Origin: Candidatus Cloacimonadales bacterium
Lineage (GTDB): Bacteria; Cloacimonadota; Cloacimonadia; Cloacimonadales; JAFGVF01
DNA: 64,000 nucleotides
Reading direction: 5' to 3'
Assembly: GCA_963677495.2 (NCBI GenBank)
Contig: CAXXOU010000003.1
Location: 416,001 to 480,000 of the forward strand
This document shows positions 24,128-47,559 of this stretch, piece after piece. Position numbers and translations under genes: made by a program. Each line of letters begins with the position of its first letter. The first letter of the stretch is position 1. The notes beneath the pieces were generated by a model. The model was not told the DNA's origin. It saw only the letters and a program-made list of their open reading frames with translations, and searched no databases.

Positions 24128-25084
24128 ATGAAAAAGATAATAATAATACTGTTAGTAGTGCTGGTAACAAGCACTCTTTTAGCCGATAAATATGCTGGAG
24201 AAATCTTTAGACTTCGTGCCGGAGTTAGAAACTATGCTCTTGGCAATACAGGAGTAACTGACTATAACACAACAGCTACAGCTGTTCGCAATCCTGCATT
24301 AATTCCATTCAATAATACATTTAATGCTGAGTTTATGCATGCTGAAGAGTATGATGGCTTACTCAAATATGATACAATTAGTTTTAATGGTAACTCAAAT
24401 CTGCCATTCTCAGCTGTACTCACTAGAATTGGAATCAATGACATTCCTATTACTAAGCTTGAAGATGAGGATGGAGAGCTATCTTCAATCAATAAACCAT
24501 ATGTTGATAGATATGTAGATAATAGTGATTACATCCTCTATTTCGGATATGGTCGTGTGATTAATGATAAGTTCTCAATTGGTGTTACTCCAAAGCTGGC
24601 TTACAGAGATTTAGCCGAAGAAAACGGTTATGGCTTCGGAATTGATCTTGGACTTCTATATAAATTCAATAATGATTTTACAGGGGGACTAAAGTTTAAC
24701 GATGCTTTCACCACACAAATAATCTGGGCAGATGCTGATAACGAATTAGTTATGCCATCAGCTGATCTAGAGTTTAGCTATGCAAAAAAACTATCAAAGA
24801 AAGGTTTAGATTCATTTAGACTTATAGCAATGACAGAGATAATATCTGATTTCCCTGAAGATGATATAACAGCTCAGATGGGAGACTTGGGTTTAGATTT
24901 CCATGCAGGTATTGAATATGCTCCAGTGGAAACTCTCCAAGTGCTTCTTGGATATGATGTAGATAATATCACTGCAGGTTTAGGTTTTCAATATAATAAC
25001 TACATGATTACTTATGCTTACGAGCATGAGATAGAGGAAGATTTAGACAATTCACATAGAATCTCCGCCGGAGTTAAGTTTTAA
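24128..25084 (+). CDS. PorV/PorQ-family outer membrane beta-barrel
   Basis: Signal peptide; AGVRNYALGN...NPA; GFGIDLG; C-terminal HRISAGVKF. Confidence 0.7.
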   Translation: MKKIIIILLVVLVTSTLLADKYAGEIFRLRAGVRNYALGNTGVTDYNTTATAVRNPALIPFNNTFNAEFMHAEEYDGLLKYDTISFNGNSNLPFSAVLTRIGINDIPITKLEDEDGELSSINKPYVDRYVDNSDYILYFGYGRVINDKFSIGVTPKLAYRDLAEENGYGFGIDLGLLYKFNNDFTGGLKFNDAFTTQIIWADADNELVMPSADLEFSYAKKLSKKGLDSFRLIAMTEIISDFPEDDITAQMGDLGLDFHAGIEYAPVETLQVLLGYDVDNITAGLGFQYNNYMITYAYEHEIEEDLDNSHRISAGVKF

Positions 25085-37413: not shown

Positions 37414-38622
37414 ATGATAATTAAAACTAATATATTGAACCCAATTGATAGAGAGACCTGTGAGTATAAGAGAGATGTTTATCTTACTCTAGCAGGAGGA
37501 AAGATAATATCAATAACAGATAGAATATCCGGTAAATTACCATATCATGACTACAGTGAATTTATATGTCTTCCTGGGATGATCGATTGTCATACTCATC
37601 TTTCACAATGGCGTATTAGAGGACGTTATAAAGATAACCTACTGGAGTGGTTGGATAGTTATGTGTTTCCAGAAGAGGGAAGATCATTTAATCCTGAATT
37701 TGCCAGAAAAACAGCTATAGATTTCTTTAGAAATCTGATATTGAACGGTACTACTACTGCTGCTGTTTATGTCTCAGCCTCTAAACTAGCTACTGAAATT
37801 GCCTTTGAAGAGGGAGTTAAATCAGGACTTAGACTCATCATGGGACAGGTTCAAATGGATAGAAATGCACCAGATTACCTACTACAAGATACAGAAGAAA
37901 GTCTGACTGATGCTGAGGAGCTTTGCCATAAATGGAACCAATTCACACCATTGATGCATTATGCCTTTACTCCTAGATTTGCTATAACATGTACAGGAGA
38001 ACTGATGAGTGGAATTAGTACTCTATCTGAAAAATATCATGCAAGAATTCAAACTCATCTTTCCGAGAATCTTAATGAACTGAAGAAAGTTGAAGAACTG
38101 TTCCCTGACTGTGAGAATTACACAGAAGTGTATGATAAGCATGGTTTGGTTACACCTCGAACTATCTTTGGTCATGCAATCCACTTATATGACTCAGAGG
38201 TTAAACTCTTAGCTGAGAAGGGAGCTAGAATTGCTCATTGTCCTGACTCGAACTTCTTTCTAAACTCAGGTCAATTCAAACTGGATAGGTTACAGAGTGC
38301 AGGTTTAGAGATTGGTCTTGCTTCTGATGTTGCAGCAGGAACTACATTGGACATGTTCTACCATCAGCGAATGATGCTTTATAGACAAAACACAGGGTTG
38401 TTAAGGCTCCCAGAGCTGTTCTATACTGCTACTTTAGGTGGAGCTAGAGCACTTAACCTCGAAGAGGAGACAGGCTCAATAACTGTTGGTAAGTCTGCTG
38501 ATTTAATCTTCATGGATATTAAGAACACAAAGAATGCTGATAGTATTCTTTCGGAGTTAATCTTTATATCACCATATCCATCTGTAAGCAAAGTAATGGT
38601 GGCAGGAAAAGAGGTTACTTAA
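37414..38622 (+). CDS. guaD: Guanine deaminase
   Basis: PGMIDCHTHLSQ, LLEWL...FPEE, GTTTA, TPRFAITC, QTHLSEN, HCPDSNFFLNSG, SDVAAG. Confidence 0.88.
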   Translation: MIIKTNILNPIDRETCEYKRDVYLTLAGGKIISITDRISGKLPYHDYSEFICLPGMIDCHTHLSQWRIRGRYKDNLLEWLDSYVFPEEGRSFNPEFARKTAIDFFRNLILNGTTTAAVYVSASKLATEIAFEEGVKSGLRLIMGQVQMDRNAPDYLLQDTEESLTDAEELCHKWNQFTPLMHYAFTPRFAITCTGELMSGISTLSEKYHARIQTHLSENLNELKKVEELFPDCENYTEVYDKHGLVTPRTIFGHAIHLYDSEVKLLAEKGARIAHCPDSNFFLNSGQFKLDRLQSAGLEIGLASDVAAGTTLDMFYHQRMMLYRQNTGLLRLPELFYTATLGGARALNLEEETGSITVGKSADLIFMDIKNTKNADSILSELIFISPYPSVSKVMVAGKEVT

Positions 38623-40684
38623 CTCTGATAATCTTACCTGATTGGTTACCTGAATCTGTCTTAATACTGTAGAAATATACACCTGATGGAGATGCACCTA
38701 AAGCTTTCGTATCCAACTTATATTCTCTTTGATTAAGCTCATCACCTTTATAGACTAATCTTCCTTTAATATCATAAATCTCTATTTTTCTGATAAGCTG
38801 ATTCTCAGACTTAACGTACAAGTTTTCAGCAAAAGGCATCGGGTATAGCTGTAGTGATGTTGCCGGTTGTACTTGCTCATCAATAGAAATCGCATTATCG
38901 AACTCAACAGCCCCTATATCTATGAAGTTATCAACTATTCTCTCGTTTCCATGGAAATCTGTTTCAGGAATCATAAGGTACTGAGGATTCAATGTACCTG
39001 CATTTATAGCTAATGATACTTGATTTGGCATATAGTAGTATTCTTCTTCTCCCAAAAATCCTGTTGAAGCATTAATGTTTGTGCCATCTGCAATCGCCTG
39101 ATTCACAAGGTTGTACTTCGTATAGAAAGGCTTACAGTTAACTAATTGCATATCTTCAATATATGCTGTTGTGTTATTTGTTACAATGTTATTGTAGAGC
39201 AATGGCTTTGAGTGAAAAGCATGTATAGCAGATGTTTTATAGTAAGTATCAGGGTTGATTACTGCATTGTTTGTAATAGTGTTGTTTAAGAGTTTAGGAA
39301 ACGCATAGTCAGCTCTCAAGAATGAGCCACTAACAAGTGCATAATTGTTGTATGCGACGTTGTTAGTAATTCTGACTGCTGATTCTTTAAAACAGGCAAT
39401 AACTGCACCATTACTTGCCAAGTTTTGCGTAAAAGAACAGTTCTCTATTGTTAACTTATTGAAGCTCTCAACATAAAATACACCACCATGCCCGGAATAA
39501 GCTTCACCTTCTATTGCTATATTCTTACTATTTGCAAAGTCACAATACTTGAAACTGGATGCTTCGTTTTGCTCAGAAGTATTATTAAACCTAATACCAT
39601 TCCAAGCAAACTCAGTATTCTCGTCAGGAGTGAAACTGGCACTACTCATGTGGTTGAAGTCAATCCTATTCTCGGGAGTACCTTCTGCAATAATTGCACC
39701 TTGGACATCTATATGATAATGTCCGGTAAACATGATCGTTGCACCCGGCTCTATGATAAGTGTGCTTCCTGATTCTATTGTGAAATCACTATCAATGTAG
39801 TGGATACCACCATCCCATACCGTATCTTCGGTAATGTTATCAATTCTAGCATTAGTTTCTGTTGGCAACACAAATGACTGGCATCCATAATCTGTAGCTG
39901 CGGAGTTCTGCTGATGACTAAAATTACCGTTAAAAGGATCAATAAGTTCAGGATCAAGACCAGAGATATTACTTGCTTCCGTACCGGAACCCGGCCACGG
40001 ATAAGGCTCGAATCAGCCATAATCGCAATACAATGTGAAGTGATATAATGGGTTTTGGTTTATTGCATCCCTAGAGAAGTAGGACCAGTTATCGTAGATT
40101 TGAGATGCAGGATTTGATGTACCTTGATAACTTATAGCAAAATTAGCACCAGTAGTTAAGAATACGTTTTGTTCACTGTTATATTGCAGAAAGTCATCTC
40201 CTGTGTTAACAGCATTAAAGAAGATATTGTTTCTAATTGTAATATCGTTTCCACAAGCTAAGGTTCTAATTGCATAGTCATCATTGTTATAGAAAGTAAC
40301 ATACTCAACTAAACCTGAAGGATATATTTCACTACCCGAGGATGAATTTCCATAAAACCTAAGATTACCATTGATTATAACACAATCCAATATCTCGAAC
40401 TGGATATCTGTATAAGCAATCATGATTCTTTCATGTTGTAAATCAATGACAGCACCATTCCCTATAATTTTAGTATTTACTCCAAAGTCTCCGTAAAAGA
40501 TGTCAGTCTCATTATCGAAAGTTTGCCCGAGATGCAATCCACCATAGTATGTAACACCTTGCTGAAGCACAACAAGTTTATCAAATCCTTCACCGGATCC
40601 GGCTGCATCATATGCCTCTGAAAGACGTATACTATTTAAACTTAAAGCAATTAAAGATATTACGACCAGCATTAGTTTTCTCAT
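38615..40684 (-). CDS. Secreted beta-helix protein with T9SS-type CTD; one reading frame with an in-frame TGA at 40013-40015 (probable selenocysteine)
   Basis: ORF 40013-40696 (signal peptide, start 40684) and ORF 38615-39871 share a frame, and the 47 codons between them are open (FEPYPWPG...DPELIDPFNGNFSH...). CTD LYPMPF...IYDIKGRLV...SGVYFY...KIIRVK. Confidence 0.7.
39978..40001 (-). promoter_or_regulatory. Putative bacterial SECIS hairpin
   Basis: mRNA UGA-UUCGAGCCUUA-UCCGU-G-GCCGG-GUU-CCGGU-ACGGA: GC-rich stem starting 11 nt after the UGA, with a G-first apical loop. Confidence 0.6.
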
Positions 40685-40686
40685 AA

Positions 40687-41613
40687 TCACTCCCAAATTG
40701 CAACTTCAATCAGACCACTACTATCAGCTTTTCCTCTAAACATCCCTAATGAGTTATAAGGCATTACAATAGTTCCATTGTTGTCAATGGCTATGAATCC
40801 TCCAGCTCCATCAGGAAGCTCACCAATAGTATAATCAGCAGCATCTTCAAGTCCTAATCCAAGATATGTCATCTTAGCATGAATATCATAAGCAGTACAG
40901 CCGGTCATAAATAGCTCTCCGATTCCTGTGCAAGAAACAGCACATGTTTCATTGTTCGCATAAGTTCCTGCCCCAATAATTGGAGTATCACCGATACGCA
41001 TGAATTTCTTGTTAGTCATTCCACCGGTCGAAGTAGAAGTTGCAAGGTTACCTTTAATATCCAACGCAACAGCACCAACAGTACCGAGTGAGACATTGCT
41101 ATCAGCGGTATGATCAAGAATAATCTTACCTTCTGATTTTGCCTTTAACCAAGCATTATACCGATATTCAGTATCAAAATAGTAGTTCTCTACCTGTTCA
41201 AGTCCGTGTAGACTTGCAAACTTATCTGCTCCATCTCCACATAGTAAAATATGCTCGGATTCTTCCATAACTTTTTTTGCAAGTAGGATAGGATTCTTAG
41301 TAGTTTTCACTCCTGTAACTGCTCCACACTTAAGATTATTACCATCCATAAGCGAAGCATCCAACTCATGTTTTCCATCTGCATTATATACAGCTCCCAC
41401 ACCGGCATTAAATAACGGGTTGTCCTCCATGGACCTTACCGCTTCTATCGTTGCATCCAAAGCTGTACCACCACTTTTCAAAACCAATACACCTGCTTGA
41501 AGAGCTTCAGTTAAGCCAATCTTATAGGATTCTATTCGTTCAGGGTCAGTACTTCTACTGATTACACCGGCACCACCATGTATTGCTATTGCGTATTTAC
41601 TAATCAAACTCAT
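40687..41613 (-). CDS. iaaA: Isoaspartyl peptidase / L-asparaginase (Ntn hydrolase)
   Basis: IAIHGGAG, EDNPLFNAG, ELDASLMDG, GTVGAVA, TSTGG, RIGDTPIIGAG; start 41613 with GAGGAG RBS. Confidence 0.92.
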   Translation of the reverse strand: MSLISKYAIAIHGGAGVISRSTDPERIESYKIGLTEALQAGVLVLKSGGTALDATIEAVRSMEDNPLFNAGVGAVYNADGKHELDASLMDGNNLKCGAVTGVKTTKNPILLAKKVMEESEHILLCGDGADKFASLHGLEQVENYYFDTEYRYNAWLKAKSEGKIILDHTADSNVSLGTVGAVALDIKGNLATSTSTGGMTNKKFMRIGDTPIIGAGTYANNETCAVSCTGIGELFMTGCTAYDIHAKMTYLGLGLEDAADYTIGELPDGAGGFIAIDNNGTIVMPYNSLGMFRGKADSSGLIEVAIWE

Positions 41614-42241
41614 ACTCCTCATCGAAATCAAAACGCTTATCAATTTCCTGCTTTGCTGAATGATATGAAAAGCCTTTCCTAATCAAGAATTCAAGACACT
41701 TCTGTTTATGCTTTCGCTTATCTTCAGTTCTATATCGTCTAAAAGCATAATCTGCTTTCTCTTTTAGGTTCTCTGACTCAGCAGAAGCATCATAATACTC
41801 ACTAAGAGCATAGTCAATATATTCAGGACTAATTCCTTTCTCTTTAAGCTTGTATCGAAGCTCTTTTCTACTAAGCTGACTATCTCTTCCTGAGATTACA
41901 AACATCTCAGCAAAGCGTTTGTCATTGAGGAATTTCTTTTCAAGACAGAAATCTATCAGTTGCTTTGAGAACTCATATGATAATGGTAACTCTTTTAGAA
42001 ATGTCCTTGCTTCTTTAAGAGAACGGTCTCTATAGGAAAGGAAACGGAACAGTCTCTCTCTACCGTAACGCAGCACTTCAGTCTCAAAGTCATCTATATT
42101 GTATTCACTAATCGCAAGTACACCATCATTGTCGATGAATCGTCTTAATATTTTGCCTGATAAAGTACCAATAGCCTTTCCATCACCAAATATGATATAG
42201 ATGCTCTTCTTTCCGTGTTTAAGTTCAAATGTATATTGCAT
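41600..42241 (-). CDS. recX: Regulatory protein RecX
   Basis: FLSYRDRSLKE, FLNDKRFA, LKEKGI, FLIRKGF; directly downstream of recA. Confidence 0.85.
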   Translation of the reverse strand: MQYTFELKHGKKSIYIIFGDGKAIGTLSGKILRRFIDNDGVLAISEYNIDDFETEVLRYGRERLFRFLSYRDRSLKEARTFLKELPLSYEFSKQLIDFCLEKKFLNDKRFAEMFVISGRDSQLSRKELRYKLKEKGISPEYIDYALSEYYDASAESENLKEKADYAFRRYRTEDKRKHKQKCLEFLIRKGFSYHSAKQEIDKRFDFDEEYEFD

Positions 42242-42281
42242 AAAAAAAGAAAAGTCTCACCCACTTCAAAGCAGATGAGAC
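42242..42281 (-). terminator. Intrinsic terminator between recA and recX
   Basis: Minus strand GTCTCATCTGC-tttgaa-GTGGGTGAGAC followed by TTTTCTTTTTTT. Confidence 0.7.
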
Positions 42282-42295
42282 CATAGCAGTTTTAT

Positions 42296-43327
42296 CTATT
42301 CTTCTGTATTCTCTACGTTTTCAAAGTCTTCAGGAGCCACAAGAGCTCTAACTTTATTTTCAATTTCACTCTTAAGTTCAGGATTATCATTAAAATAAAT
42401 CTTAACCTTCTCAGTACCTTGACCAAGACGTGTATCACCATATGAATACCATGATCCACTCTTTGTAATAATATTATGACTCACACCCATATCAATGAGA
42501 ATATCATTGTAAGAGATTCCCTGACCAAAGATGATTGGGAAGAGTACTGTTTTGAATGGAGGAGCAAGCTTGTTCTTAACTATCTTCACTCTTACCTTGT
42601 TTCCAAGAACTTCAGCTTCTGCACCTGTACTCTTAATAGCACCTGCATTTCTTACTTCCAGACGTACTGATGAGTAGAACTTAAGGGCTACACCACCGGT
42701 AGTTGTTTCAGGATTCACGTAAGAAGGTACTCCAATTTTCATACGAGTCTGGTTAATAAAGATTACTGCACAATTAGTCTTAGAGATAATAGATGTAAGC
42801 TTTCTTAAAGCTTGTGACATCAATCTAGCTTGAAGACCGACATGACTGTCGCCCATCGAACCTTCAATCTCCTGTCTAGGCACAAGAGCTGCAACTGAGT
42901 CAACAATTACAAGATCTATAGCGTTACTTCTTACAAGTGCTTCAACAATCTCTAATGCTTGTTCTCCACCATCCGGCTGAGATAGAAGCAAGTGGTCTAT
43001 ATCTACACCAAGATTTCTGGCATAATGTGGATCCAATGCATGCTCTGCGTCGATAAAGGCTACAACGCCACCTTGTTTCTGGCATTCAGCAGCAACATGA
43101 AGTGTCAGTGTTGTTTTACCTGATGCCTCTGCACCGTATATCTCTGTTATACGACCCTTTGGTATACCACCCATTCCAAGAGCTAAGTCAAGGTTAAGTG
43201 CACCTGTAGGTATTGTATCAACAGCAATATTCGGTTTGTCTCCCATCTGCATGACAGTACCAATACCGAACTTCTTCTCCAATTGGGTTATTGCAGTTTT
43301 CAGTGCTGCTTCTTTGTTTTTATCCAT
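42296..43327 (-). CDS. recA: Recombinase RecA
   Basis: [58 protein letters not shown]. Confidence 0.98.
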
Positions 43328-43339
43328 AATTATTCCTCC

Positions 43340-43885
43340 TCAAAGTTCATAGTCAAAGAGGGAAATATATCGTGGTCCCTTCTTTGATAAAATGCTTTTA
43401 TACAAAGTTATATCTGGTGATTTAAAGCTTAAGCCGGAAACAGGATATGACAACAAACGTTTCATAACAGGCACCGGGATTACATCCTTTATCCTACCGA
43501 GAGTTATGTGTGGTTTGTAGGCTTTAATATCTAAATCAGGGCAGAAAGTTGCCAATTCTTTGTTAAGTCTTTTCACCCATTTAGATATACCGGAATCAGC
43601 ATCAAGCTTTATCCAGACTATTTTAGGTCGGTTTGACGGTACAACTTCAACTCCTGAAATCTTAAACTCATTGCAATCAAATTCGGCTAAGCGTTCCTCT
43701 ATGATTCTGTTAATGTCATCCAATACAGCATCATTTATATCACCCAGAAAACTCAAAGTAATATGTAAATTCTCATCTTCTACCCATTTAACCCCAAATG
43801 GTATGAGTGCTTTAAAGCTGTTTATTGCTTCAATAGCTTCAAGCTTCTGCTCACTCGGGAGATTAAAGGCTAGAAATGCTCTCAT
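43340..43885 (-). CDS. thpR: RNA 2',3'-cyclic phosphodiesterase (2H family)
   Basis: MRAFLA, two HxT motifs (NLHITLSFLG, KPHITLGR), LYKS. Confidence 0.9.
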   Translation of the reverse strand: MRAFLAFNLPSEQKLEAIEAINSFKALIPFGVKWVEDENLHITLSFLGDINDAVLDDINRIIEERLAEFDCNEFKISGVEVVPSNRPKIVWIKLDADSGISKWVKRLNKELATFCPDLDIKAYKPHITLGRIKDVIPVPVMKRLLSYPVSGLSFKSPDITLYKSILSKKGPRYISLFDYEL

Positions 43886-44368
43886 CTATCGTTTATAGCC
43901 AATGTTTATTAGGAACTGCTTTCTTGCAGTGATGTCAGTATCAAGCTCAACACCTTTTGGTGAGAATCCATCAACAACTCCAAGAACTCCACGTCCTTGT
44001 TCTGTTTCTGCAAGTATTACTTCCACAGGATTAGCAGTTGCACAAAAAACAGTTGCAACTTCACGACAGCTTTTAACTGCAGGCAGAATGTTAATCGGAT
44101 AAGCATCTTTTAAGATAATTAAGAAAGTGTGCCCCGCACCAATTCTGCGAACGTTTTCAACTGCAAGCTTTACAAGCTCAGGATTGTTACCATCTTTTCT
44201 GACAAGACATGGTCCTGAGGCCTCATTAAAGGCTAAACCAAACTGTGCGTTAGGGACAGAATTGACGATTACTTCATACAAATCTTCCACTGTTTTTATA
44301 AAATGTGATTGCCCGAAAATGATATTCATCTCTTCGGGAAGCTGAATTTTCTCTACTCGAAGTTCCAT
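43886..44368 (-). CDS. Adenosine-specific kinase (DUF355)
   Basis: NIIFGQSHFIKTVEDL, AFNEASG, GAGHTF, FCATANP, GRGVLGVVDG. Confidence 0.85.
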   Translation of the reverse strand: MELRVEKIQLPEEMNIIFGQSHFIKTVEDLYEVIVNSVPNAQFGLAFNEASGPCLVRKDGNNPELVKLAVENVRRIGAGHTFLIILKDAYPINILPAVKSCREVATVFCATANPVEVILAETEQGRGVLGVVDGFSPKGVELDTDITARKQFLINIGYKR

Positions 44369-44969: not shown

Positions 44970-47357
44970 CTACTTCATTAATACCATTTTAGTAGTAATA
45001 CTCTTACCCCTACTCTTCATCTTACAGAAGTATATACCAGATGATACGGTTCTGTTATCATCATCTACTCCGTTCCATACAACCTTATGCTCCCCACTCT
45101 CCATCTCATCATCGCATAGTGTTTTGATTTTTTGTCCTTTCACATTGTAGATAGCAATTTCAACCTTAGATTTTGTGGGTAATGTAAATGATATGTTGGT
45201 TGTAGGATTGAAAGGATTAGGATAATTAGTTAAACTATAGGGTTCAAGACTTATAACATCATCTTGTGAATTGGTATATCCCGGAAACTCATAACACCCA
45301 ATATCGATACTACTACCATAAATCCTATCCTCACCTGCAAGATCATAAAGTGGAAATTCGTAGTTTGCAGGGAATAGGTTTAGATCCGTTGTTCCGGCAT
45401 CTATTGCAGGAGAAGGTCCCCATTCTGTATCATCTCCTGATAAGTAATAATACTCAGGGAATGCTGGATCACCACCAACAAATAAGGGGTCTGTTCCAAC
45501 TAGGTTGTTAGCACCAAAGTTAATAGGATCACCATTAAAAACAGTGTACAAGTTCTCTGAATCTGTAAAAAGACAATTATCTACATTACTATTACCTGAT
45601 AGGTCTAGCTGATAAGTATGACCTTCGTTGTTTGCAAAGATGCAATTATAGACATTGAGAGAATCTGATGTTGTTATGAAATTCTCATATACACCTTGAT
45701 TGTTAGCAAAAGTTGTATTCAGGATATTTATTGATTCGTAATCACCAAACATCAATATAGTATATGCCGATCCACTTGTAGTATTATTGGAGTAAAGACA
45801 ATTATCAATAAACAAACTAGGATTAGAATTAACATCATTATGTTGAAAAGTAGAAGTATAATCGGAAACATTAAGATAGTTATTTATGAAGGTACTGTTT
45901 TTTATTCTGCAAGTATCCTTAATCGATAGATTATAAACACCCCAAGCTGGTGTTGTACCTATTTGCTCAGTAATACAATCACGTACATATAGAGAATCAA
46001 TTTCTAAGTTGAGTAAGCCTAAATTTAAACCGGAATTAATATATGATGTATTGTTAATTAGAGATACATTGCTGATTCTTAAATCTCCTTCATAACCATT
46101 AATTGACATCGCCCCAGTAAAAAGTCCAAGATTACTGTCTCTAATTACAACATTATCTATATCTGAGTGATAAGCAGTGTATGATCCTAACCCATGTCCG
46201 TTATTAACAGTTATTGATAGATTCTCTATAGACATATTAGATTGATGTGAACCATAGGAGATACAAGCACCTACAGGTGCCTCTACCATAGAATCAGCAA
46301 AGAGATGTGTCATTTCCGGTGATACTCCATGTAATGTTGTGTTTTCTTTTAAAACAATTGTTGTATTACAGCCATTAATTATCTCAGTAAAGTCTCCCTC
46401 TAAGAGATGAACTGTTAATGGATTATCTACTGTTGGATTGATTTGCTGAAAAGCCTTCCAAGTTGTTCTTAAAGGATCTTCAGGAGTCAAACCGGAATTC
46501 GTATCATCCCCGTTCATAGAAACATATAAATCACTTTCAACAGGTGTTATATATGATTGCTGTATATCAAAAACTGGGAAAGGATTGGTTATATCAGTAT
46601 AATCATAATCAAATATATTTACGTAATACTTTGATGGTTCATGCCAAGTAAACATGTCTAAATAAATATCTTGTGTGAAAAAATGATTGTAACTCCATCC
46701 AATATCCATACCTTGAGGACTATAGTTATTGTAGATACTACAGCGATTGACTTGATCAAAAATAACATTGGAATGATCAGTCCAAGAGCTTGCAAAGCAA
46801 ACTCCTCCACCAATACATCTACCAATATTGTTGAAAATGTTAACATTGCTAATATTGCACTGTATATTGTCGTGACCAAACCAAATACCTCCTCCTTTCG
46901 ATGACTTATTCTCAAAAATGTTACAATTTTTAATAATTATATCAATATTGCTATAGCAAAAGATCCCTCCACCAAACACTTGATCACTATTTATATCATG
47001 ACTATCCCAGAATATATGCCCACTTCCACCTGTGATTGATAATCCTCTTATCTCACAATTAGTTAGGTTTTCATAACATGAAATAGTGGAATCTTCATTT
47101 AAACTACCATTGATTATAGTTAAACTTACATAGGTTGTATCTCCTGTAGTAGCTTCCAATGAACACAATGAGACATTAGATTTATTACTAAACTCAATAT
47201 TCTCATAATACATACCGGGATGTACAATCACTGTGTCACCTGCTACAGAGAAATCAATGCCTTCTTGAATCGTTGTGTAATCCATGGGGATATTAATAAT
47301 GTTGGCGAATAGTAGAATTGGTAAAAGCATTAGTAGAAATAGAAAGATTCTTCTCAT
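44970..47357 (-). CDS. Secreted right-handed beta-helix protein with T9SS-type CTD
   Basis: Signal peptide (start MRRIFLF, 47357); TIQEGID...GDTVIVHPGMYYENI; YVSMNGDDTNSGLTPEDP (DUF1565-like); DPLFV...SPAIDAG; CTD TNYPNPFNP...SSGIYF...KMVLMK. Confidence 0.8.
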   Translation of the reverse strand: MRRIFLFLLMLLPILLFANIINIPMDYTTIQEGIDFSVAGDTVIVHPGMYYENIEFSNKSNVSLCSLEATTGDTTYVSLTIINGSLNEDSTISCYENLTNCEIRGLSITGGSGHIFWDSHDINSDQVFGGGIFCYSNIDIIIKNCNIFENKSSKGGGIWFGHDNIQCNISNVNIFNNIGRCIGGGVCFASSWTDHSNVIFDQVNRCSIYNNYSPQGMDIGWSYNHFFTQDIYLDMFTWHEPSKYYVNIFDYDYTDITNPFPVFDIQQSYITPVESDLYVSMNGDDTNSGLTPEDPLRTTWKAFQQINPTVDNPLTVHLLEGDFTEIINGCNTTIVLKENTTLHGVSPEMTHLFADSMVEAPVGACISYGSHQSNMSIENLSITVNNGHGLGSYTAYHSDIDNVVIRDSNLGLFTGAMSINGYEGDLRISNVSLINNTSYINSGLNLGLLNLEIDSLYVRDCITEQIGTTPAWGVYNLSIKDTCRIKNSTFINNYLNVSDYTSTFQHNDVNSNPSLFIDNCLYSNNTTSGSAYTILMFGDYESINILNTTFANNQGVYENFITTSDSLNVYNCIFANNEGHTYQLDLSGNSNVDNCLFTDSENLYTVFNGDPINFGANNLVGTDPLFVGGDPAFPEYYYLSGDDTEWGPSPAIDAGTTDLNLFPANYEFPLYDLAGEDRIYGSSIDIGCYEFPGYTNSQDDVISLEPYSLTNYPNPFNPTTNISFTLPTKSKVEIAIYNVKGQKIKTLCDDEMESGEHKVVWNGVDDDNRTVSSGIYFCKMKSRGKSITTKMVLMK

Positions 47358-47559
47358 AATCACAACCTTTTCAGGACACAATATTTGGAAGCTTCTGCAG
47401 ATTCAAAATATTGGGTCAATGTCTTTTAGTTTATTCACTACATATATTTTCTATGTGTCAAGAATAAAAGCAAGACTTCTGGTTTATTCTTGCAGAAGAT
47501 TAACTATCATAGATTAAATTCAGGTCAGTGGAGCTTGCCGACTTCGTCGTCACAGCATC

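Follow-up and report, generated by a model that had tools for sequence, protein, structure and literature searches.

A probable selenoprotein of an uncatalogued, surface-sorted beta-helix family in a Candidatus Cloacimonadales bacterium

Gene layout and reading frame

The stretch of DNA analysed here (the window) comprises 64,000 nucleotides of contig CAXXOU010000003.1 from a Candidatus Cloacimonadales bacterium, and carries on its minus strand a gene interrupted by an in-frame TGA that very probably encodes a selenoprotein from a family of surface-sorted beta-helix proteins that is uncatalogued and spans several phyla. An earlier reading of the letters without database searches (the sequence-only reading) had described two open reading frames in one frame, split by a single TGA and 47 open codons, and had joined them into a 689-residue frame with a Cys four residues upstream of the TGA, all of which is borne out by translation. 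Minus-strand translation of 38615-40696 contains a single internal stop, the TGA at 40015-40013 (context HFTLYCDYG*FEPYPWPGSG), and read-through from the ATG at 40684 yields 689 amino acids in which the TGA is residue 224 and the Cys residue 220, a spacing written CxxxU, where U stands for selenocysteine (Sec). The 47 codons that follow the TGA (40012-39872) are open, and the earliest possible start downstream of it is a GTG at 39871. In order, the 689-codon frame holds a putative signal peptide, a beta-helix, a second beta-helix, a choice-of-anchor Q motif and a tail of the type IX secretion system (T9SS) kind, and no Pfam or NCBIfam match covers its first 280 residues. A base error, which the sequence-only reading had wanted excluded, finds no footing in four assemblies of a single sample, which may be the source of the window: they show zero base differences over 39500-40500. 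The features of the gene are as follows.

38615..40684, minus strand: complete gene of 689 codons and a TAA stop, interrupted by one in-frame TGA (Sec224, predicted); homologs are open over the same span
40690..40694, minus strand: GGGAG resembling a ribosome-binding site, a role suggested by the sequence; it immediately precedes the stop codon (40689-40687) that ends the asparaginase-family gene upstream
40628..40684, minus strand: signal-peptide-like N-terminus, about residues 1-19, recognised by eye from a basic start and a hydrophobic core; family conservation begins at residue 20-21
39872..40627, minus strand: Sec-bearing right-handed beta-helix domain, residues 20-271, spanning the TGA (AlphaFold2 model, structural match 7dmk)
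40025..40027, minus strand: Cys220 codon TGC, replaced by TGA in 7/80 homologs
40013..40015, minus strand: in-frame TGA, putative selenocysteine 224; TGA in 79/80 homologs, TGC in 1
39978..40001, minus strand: hairpin resembling a selenocysteine insertion sequence (SECIS), spanning +12 to +35 from the TGA, with GUU (39990-39988) as its apical loop
39872..40012, minus strand: 47-codon bridge forming the end of the Sec domain, with cap motif DP..DP.NG.....S.A..YGC; N239, P245, P250, Y266, G267 and C268 are invariant in 69 sequences
39170..39838, minus strand: second beta-helix region, about residues 283-505 (approximate limits); weak Pfam Beta_helix match at 363-505, below cut-off, and paralog matches in the genome
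38900..39022, minus strand: choice-of-anchor Q motif, residues 555-595 (NF041518, 26 bits against a cut-off of 25)
38627..38848, minus strand: T9SS type A sorting domain, residues 613-686 (PF18962, E 1.4e-10, 41.8 bits; TIGR04183, E 8.2e-11, 41.7 bits)

Conservation of the TGA codon and spread of the family

A profile scan of one genome per species returned 164 loci, the best 80 of which were kept for codon counts (73 parsed first, the remaining 7 in a second pass). Among these 80, column 224 is TGA in 79 and TGC in one (locus L095), TAA or TAG occurring in none (0/80), while column 220 is Cys in 73 and TGA in seven, which produces a UxxxU motif. The comparison of homologs proposed in the sequence-only reading has a clear outcome: in these 80 loci the column keeps TGA or Cys, with no Trp, Arg or Gly. 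The loci come from Cloacimonadota, Planctomycetota, Eisenbacteria, Acidobacteriota, Gemmatimonadetes, Bacteroidia and unnamed bacteria, that is, from at least six phyla, and homologs are at about 38-69% identity, the closest (69%) being found in Candidatus Cloacimonadota records. A search with the bridge detected relatives in 20 of 61 related genomes, with TGA directly before the bridge in 19 of the 20 loci (the window's included) and Cys in the other. A phylum sample, which overlaps the earlier sets and contains the same Cys locus, gave 28 TGA and one TGC in the 29 of 30 loci that were parsed. In a quick tree of 86 rows, computed after masking both motif columns, the nine UxxxU rows occupy at least three separate branches with support of at least 97, plus two loose rows. 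Such separate changes from Cys to TGA favour a TGA that is not a stop, because a change of this kind would kill the gene if it were.

At the protein level the family is cut in two by databases at the UGA, extends over several phyla and appears to be absent from the selenoprotein lists compared. Short database homologs amount to 479 protein matches and, among the 120 listed, 102 end just before column 224 and 18 before column 220. Three longer proteins were found by a profile search, two of them full-length with CEYGC (P0122 and P0278) and one with W at both columns, and only two distinct Cys-form clusters were seen; a single-sequence search with residues 1-280 among proteins of 378-1206 amino acids gave 0 of 1815 candidates. 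Locus scans with tighter alignments returned 2 loci, and 3 main-family loci. A W is present at the Sec columns of database proteins P0123, P0271, P0279, P0134, P0141 and P0142, which, judging from the protein sequences alone, probably come from selenoprotein genes called with TGA as Trp and would be a further type of annotation error; a locus scan with P0142 gave tail-only matches.

A distant, shorter branch is homologous to the family (hhalign probability 99.9, E 3.7e-37), and its database proteins often terminate in ..DCG or ..CPG. One of its loci, L149, reads C-G-TGA followed by an open frame, with a Cys paralog adjoining, in a genome with SelA. Tandem members of this branch occur at L149:1501-2277 and L150:1501-2256, one with C-G-TGA and a hairpin and the other with Cys and no TGA.

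Selenocysteine machinery

The Sec machinery, whose presence the sequence-only reading had asked to confirm, is encoded in full by the source genome: SelA adjoins SelB, SelD has an in-frame TGA of its own, and the tRNA-Sec, with anticodon UCA, is the sole UCA-anticodon tRNA called. A 96-nt tRNA-Cys(ACA) reported by ARAGORN at C4:243769-243864 was taken as a false call, as it has no CCA end and lies outside the 18 RF01852 matches. Among the 61 relatives, SelA is found in 44 and the gene (E < 1e-100) in 20, 19 of these carriers having SelA; the carrier devoid of a SelA match, G016, encodes SelB and tRNA-Sec. SelA was likewise found in 49 of 50 carrier genomes tested, a subset of the best 80 loci that lies mostly outside Cloacimonadota. 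As a background, in the class to which one planctomycete carrier belongs, 93 of 251 sampled genomes contain SelA and three contain the gene, all three with SelA and two of them already in the carrier set. Related genomes are non-independent, and these co-occurrence counts are given with no p-value.

In several planctomycete-class genomes (for example G077, G093 and G344) SelA is matched in two separate parts (model 1-183 and 192-366) of a single open frame, as an insertion would produce. Two SelA-like genes occur in several carrier genomes.

The SECIS-like hairpin

The prototype of a bacterial selenoprotein gene decoded through a SECIS is fdhF of E. coli. The GC-rich hairpin that the sequence-only reading had located 11 nt after the TGA is present at 40001-39978 (71% G+C versus 37% for the gene), with its GUU loop at +23 to +25 and an energy of -13.9 kcal/mol. 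The bacterial SECIS (bSECIS) consensus, as given in a review (PMC13188914), lies 16-37 nt after the UGA, has G in the first two loop positions and an energy of -7.5 or lower; the window loop of 3 nt starts with G, 22 nt after the UGA, and fits it. The hairpin also passes a bSECIS-like filter, which is our own implementation of the consensus and distinct from bSECISearch, and none of 30 synonymous-codon shuffles of the window gene produced one as good.

At the family level, the hairpin was analysed in 80 genes, namely 79 loci and the window gene, with L084 left out. A shared hairpin occurs in 65 of them, with pairs G17-C27, G18-C26 and mostly C19-G25 and a loop from +21 (GGA in 27, GGG in 15, GGC in 8), and the other 15 have an AGUUG loop at +19. 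Pair 20-24 among the 65 is C-G in 30, A-U in 8 and U-A in 1, the rest being G-U or unpaired. Because Trp and Ala codons fix much of the stem, silent sites were tested against an expectation derived from each gene's own codon use. Among the 12 genes with low G+C at third codon positions (GC3), 11 have silent G+21 (2.4 expected) and 9 have silent C+27 (2.0 expected), and high-GC3 genes have G+21 in 43 of 53 (26.7 expected) and C+27 in 49 of 53 (22.4 expected); most remaining third positions are at expectation, and +30 is raised too. The window gene adopts a shifted stem stronger than the family register, its loop starting at +23 as compared with +21 or +19 in the family, and two unrelated Sec candidates of the source genome have loops at +23 as well (CCG-GGUC-CGG and UCG-GUUU-CGG). 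As for hairpin conservation, then, a hairpin at SECIS distance with conserved silent sites is a property of the family, and the exact hairpin noted in the sequence-only reading is particular to the window gene. In UxxxU genes the loop lies at +33 when counted from the first UGA and at +21 when counted from the second, and one hairpin could serve both, since the two distances are within the 16-37 nt range.

Further selenocysteine candidates in the source genome

Several other Sec candidates were observed in the source genome. In two tandem small secreted proteins at C1:105417 and C1:106031 (plus strand), an in-frame TGA immediately follows the signal peptide; their hairpin loops, at +23, are GGUC and GUUU, and a Cys-bearing paralog lies just upstream of the pair. 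At C1:84369 (plus strand) the candidate reads ..YCVS-TGA-G.. with 101 and 252 open codons on either side, and at C4:348629 (minus strand) ..AST-TGA-GFC.. (UxxC) is followed by 927 open codons, with a GGUC loop at +25. A peroxiredoxin-like TxxU gene at C1:302147 (minus strand), named by eye from its motif, and SelD at C1:619449 (minus strand) have loops at about +18, and both genes may be used as internal standards for the SECIS of the organism.

Fold and architecture of the Sec domain

An AlphaFold2 model built from 69 sequences with Cys in place of Sec predicts that residues 20-271 fold as a single domain across the TGA (predicted local distance difference test 95.3, predicted template modelling score 0.92), with a local score of 94 in the motif-bearing block. 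The model is a right-handed beta-helix whose best match is the alginate lyase 7dmk (Z 13.8, root-mean-square deviation 3.0, 182 aligned), many lyases, tailspikes and other beta-helices lying within 1-3 Z of it. Foldseek gave no match at E <= 0.001 for either model, a PDB sequence search gave one weak cap-motif match (9rx2), and the ESM Atlas gave generic beta-helix clusters at 0.91-0.93. In the model, Cys220 terminates strand 216-219 at the end of the first beta-helix and Sec224 is placed in the following loop. Invariant polar positions in the 69 sequences are Tyr46, Asn76, Asp81, Cys101, Arg140, Thr178, Asn199, Asn209, His215, Cys220, column 224, Asn239, Tyr266 and Cys268, while Asp136, Tyr137, Asp164 and Trp200 are near-invariant; a second Cys pair, 88/92, is present in 54 and 59 of the 69 members and missing from the window gene. 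The proposal of a beta-helix selenoprotein made in the sequence-only reading is supported by these data, with the refinement that it would belong to a large family in which CxxxU and UxxxU forms are joined by rare CxxxC ones.

The downstream architecture varies among groups. Tails are T9SS/FlgD-like in Cloacimonadota, Eisenbacteria and Bacteroidia, and dockerin-like (by eye) in many planctomycetes. P0136 and P0277 are 528-residue lipoproteins that have two rhodanese domains fused ahead of the Sec domain and end just before column 220; the rhodanese part of P0136 matches NF045694 weakly (24.6 bits against a cut-off of 805), and the fusion was found in none of 31 stretches of genome contigs. With regard to export, the source genome contains PorV-family genes and a 2063-codon SprA-like gene. 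Within the window, 24206-25081 (plus strand) is PorV-family-like below cut-off (73.9 bits versus 90), one of ten such matches in the genome.

Genomic context

The gene is the last of a run comprising adenosine-kinase-like, 2',3'-cyclic phosphodiesterase, recA, recX and asparaginase-2 genes (40687-44368, minus strand), and its end overlaps by 8 bases a convergent guanine-deaminase-like gene (37414-38622, plus strand). The recA-recX-asparaginase context is common only to the closest relatives. A terminator-like site lies 3' of recA at 42282-42253, and promoter and terminator scans were at chance level (24 versus 25.2 and 5 versus 3.8, respectively). A further secreted beta-helix protein, which has a choice-of-anchor Q motif and a T9SS tail and lacks an internal stop, is encoded at 44970-47381 (minus strand), and many beta-helix/anchor/tail paralogs exist elsewhere in the source genome. 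The sequence-only reading had likened the bridge to a DP..DP..GD..SPxIDAG motif of the 44970 protein; the likeness holds at the profile level and fails in pairwise BLAST, which aligns the two proteins over residues 401-689 only.

Interpretation of the in-frame UGA

That UGA224 is read as selenocysteine, in one gene encoding one predicted protein, is an interpretation in which we place high confidence. The open frame, the conservation of the codon, the Cys counterparts, the machinery, the constraint on the hairpin and the continuity of the fold make this reading very likely. The sequence-only reading had named three observations that would argue otherwise (Trp, Arg or Gly at this position in homologs, a genome without Sec machinery and a hairpin lacking conservation); all were looked for, none was found, and the selenoprotein interpretation is supported. 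Several results nevertheless weigh against it. The stability of the 66-nt stretch after the TGA does not stand out from that of its dinucleotide shuffles (z -0.43, with 59 of 200 doing as well), and the bSECIS-like filter is passed by 21 of 305 TGA-ended frames of at least 150 codons in the source genome (10 of 305 at or below -12). Trp and Ala codons dictate a large part of the stem, and energy taken alone is weak evidence family-wide: 68 of 80 genes pass -7.5 kcal/mol, and only 26 of the 80 do better than at least 27 of their 30 synonymous shuffles. The window gene breaks family pairs 19-25 and 20-24, using a register shifted by 2 nt. The Cys-form locus L095 still carries a hairpin and sits in a genome that keeps the Sec machinery, whereas G016 and G102, both drafts, have the TGA form and no SelA match. 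Moreover, early stops occur further downstream in a few copies (L104, L079 and L247), and the gene has no match in G001, a same-genus genome in one contig that does encode SelA.

Three other explanations of the codon have been weighed. It has negligible probability that a nonsense mutation or an error of sequencing produced the TGA in this genome: public annotations do hold the gene as two fragments, but TGA occupies the same codon throughout homologs at about 38-69% identity, with the single TGC exception, and the four assemblies agree base for base; the homolog set already refutes this explanation. It is very improbable that two genes are present, one for a 223-residue secreted protein ending in CDYG and another for a tail-bearing protein started after the stop. 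The databases do contain short proteins that end at column 224 and, from general knowledge, early termination at low selenium would probably yield some 223-residue fragment. However, the stop column never shows TAA or TAG, the 47 codons lack a start codon, the second half is devoid of a signal peptide, the bridge is conserved as coding sequence and completes the fold, and fused Cys forms exist (P0122 and P0278). Read-through of the UGA as a residue other than Sec, either Cys or Trp inserted by a special tRNA or by leaky reading, is improbable too. It could be invoked from the Cys aligned at column 224 and from the W at both columns of P0123, P0271, P0279 and P0142; yet P0271 and P0279 extend past the natural tail end with W, as gene calling with TGA as Trp would give (known from protein sequences alone), the sole UCA-anticodon tRNA in the source genome is tRNA-Sec, and the TGA form tracks SelA.

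Proposed mechanism and function

In the proposed mechanism for the selenoprotein, SelB bound to the hairpin just 3' of the UGA would deliver Sec-tRNA and the ribosome would continue to the C-terminal sorting tail, after which the protein would cross the inner membrane by means of its signal peptide and reach the surface by a T9SS-like route. This mode of export is suggested by the tail together with the PorV and SprA-like genes. Termination at the UGA would leave a product without the tail and, because only the read-through product bears this sorting signal, surface display would depend on selenium supply. Cys220 and Sec224, which lie close in sequence to the invariant His215, may act as a pair.

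What this pair does is a more tentative matter. A selenenyl-sulfide/selenol-thiol redox centre for extracellular sulfur chemistry (for instance, the reduction of disulfides, persulfides or polysulfide) or for sulfur transfer is the likeliest role, predicted from the sequences with a probability that falls just short of even. Surface redox or sulfur transfer is favoured because both columns accept sulfur or selenium, the spacing varies in the distant branch and the rhodanese fusion cluster exists. Against a function of this kind, no gene neighbourhood is conserved across phyla, the structures matched are beta-helices of a generic kind, and only a single cluster of two proteins, known from protein sequences alone, has the rhodanese fusion. 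Assuming Sec at residue 224, it is rather unlikely that His215, Cys220 and Sec224 bind a soft metal (Cu, Hg, Ag or Ni) at the surface for capture or detoxification, with no redox cycling. The three columns are invariant in the 69 sequences, general chemistry predicts that UxxxU would raise soft-metal affinity, and the structural neighbours with a beta-helix include NosD (Z 10.6); however, metal-resistance or transport genes do not recur among the neighbours, and NosD is not distinct from polysaccharide lyases in the match list. A hydrolase or lyase acting on glycans or other substrates, in which Sec would be a nucleophile or base in the groove, or a purely structural Cys-Sec bond, is a doubtful alternative on the same assumption. 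Polysaccharide lyases and tailspikes are the best structural matches, a second beta-helix lies downstream of the Sec domain, and the invariant Arg140, Thr178, Asn199 and Asn209 with the near-invariant Asp136, Tyr137, Asp164 and Trp200 suggest a binding site. This is countered by the lack of a Foldseek match at E <= 0.001 and of a carbohydrate gene neighbourhood, and by the distant branch, which keeps the Cys-plus-stop loop and loses the long loop bearing several of these residues; structure alone, in turn, hardly explains the repeated gain of a second Sec.

Comparison with known systems

In its in-frame UGA, coding-region hairpin, full machinery and Sec/Cys pairs in homologs, the gene resembles the SelB/SECIS-decoded selenoprotein genes described in PMC13188914. 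It differs from them in its carrier, a right-handed beta-helix (the words 'helix' and 'secret' occur nowhere in that text), and in its spacing, as neither C-x-x-x-U nor U-x-x-x-U is among the motifs of Table 1. This table lists 119 selenoprotein families (2026), none with this architecture or motif as far as the table shows, and the families of Haft and Tolstoy 2025 were compared only through it. The family is not shown in the text passages compared from deep-Sep (PMC12013277), SelCysML (PMC13745706) or BSepDB (PMC13326102), and literature searches on selenoproteins together with Cloacimonadota, T9SS, beta-helices or signal peptides turned up no paper on it. When the Sec domain of 19 members was compared with NCBIfam (June 2026), no model for the domain was found and one of the 19 gave two weak fumarate-reductase matches; the window domain matches no selenoprotein family model, and the 689-residue protein matches only tail and anchor models. 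The statement of the sequence-only reading that the protein resembles no recognised selenoprotein family is upheld, within the NCBIfam models and that 119-family list. The beta-helix model and the CxxxU spacing also set it apart from thioredoxin-like CxxU oxidoreductases.

Predicted extracytoplasmic selenoproteins listed in Table 1 of PMC13188914 include a TonB-dependent receptor of FCYXU type (NF049945), the GSU2204 barrel (NF041027), the ExtKL multiheme cytochrome (NF040886) and SaoX/SaoB. These have in common with the present family a Sec outside the cytoplasm, often with a nearby Cys, but no homology is apparent, as 0 of 19 Sec-domain members match their NCBIfam models at E <= 0.1, and none of them is listed there with a T9SS-type tail. 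TsoB (NF045694, UxxxxU), Prx-like UxxU and metal-binding UxxU (NF041115) proteins are alike in having two close Sec codons and a rhodanese link, whereas the present family has another spacing and fold, mostly a single Sec and only a rare rhodanese fusion. The right-handed beta-helix is common to the polysaccharide lyases (PL1/PL6/PL9), and the fold, cap motif and sorting tail are similar to those of secreted beta-helix proteins with choice-of-anchor Q and T9SS tail, PL6/PL1 lyases and tailspikes, from which the Sec domain differs in belonging to no Pfam or NCBIfam family above cut-off. As in T9SS cargo, a type A C-terminal sorting domain is present.

Significance

The decoding mechanism is standard and exported selenoproteins have already been predicted; the new part is the family. 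It would add to the bacterial selenoproteome a fold (the right-handed beta-helix), a spacing (CxxxU and UxxxU) and a location (T9SS-type surface cargo), and it is common, with 164 loci in one genome scan and the 479 protein matches. A broader picture, conceivable on sequence grounds and offered tentatively, is that of a widespread class of beta-helix selenoenzymes in which a Cys/Sec or Sec/Sec loop pair would carry out extracellular persulfide/polysulfide chemistry, read-through would gate anchoring and one hairpin would serve two UGAs 12 nt apart. The UxxxU members constitute a test case for the decoding of two nearby UGAs by one SECIS, and the natural CxxxC/CxxxU/UxxxU series lets sulfur and selenium be compared directly within a single scaffold. 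The near-total retention of Sec over Cys, together with the repeated gain of a second Sec, suggests that selenium matters for the chemistry of this family.

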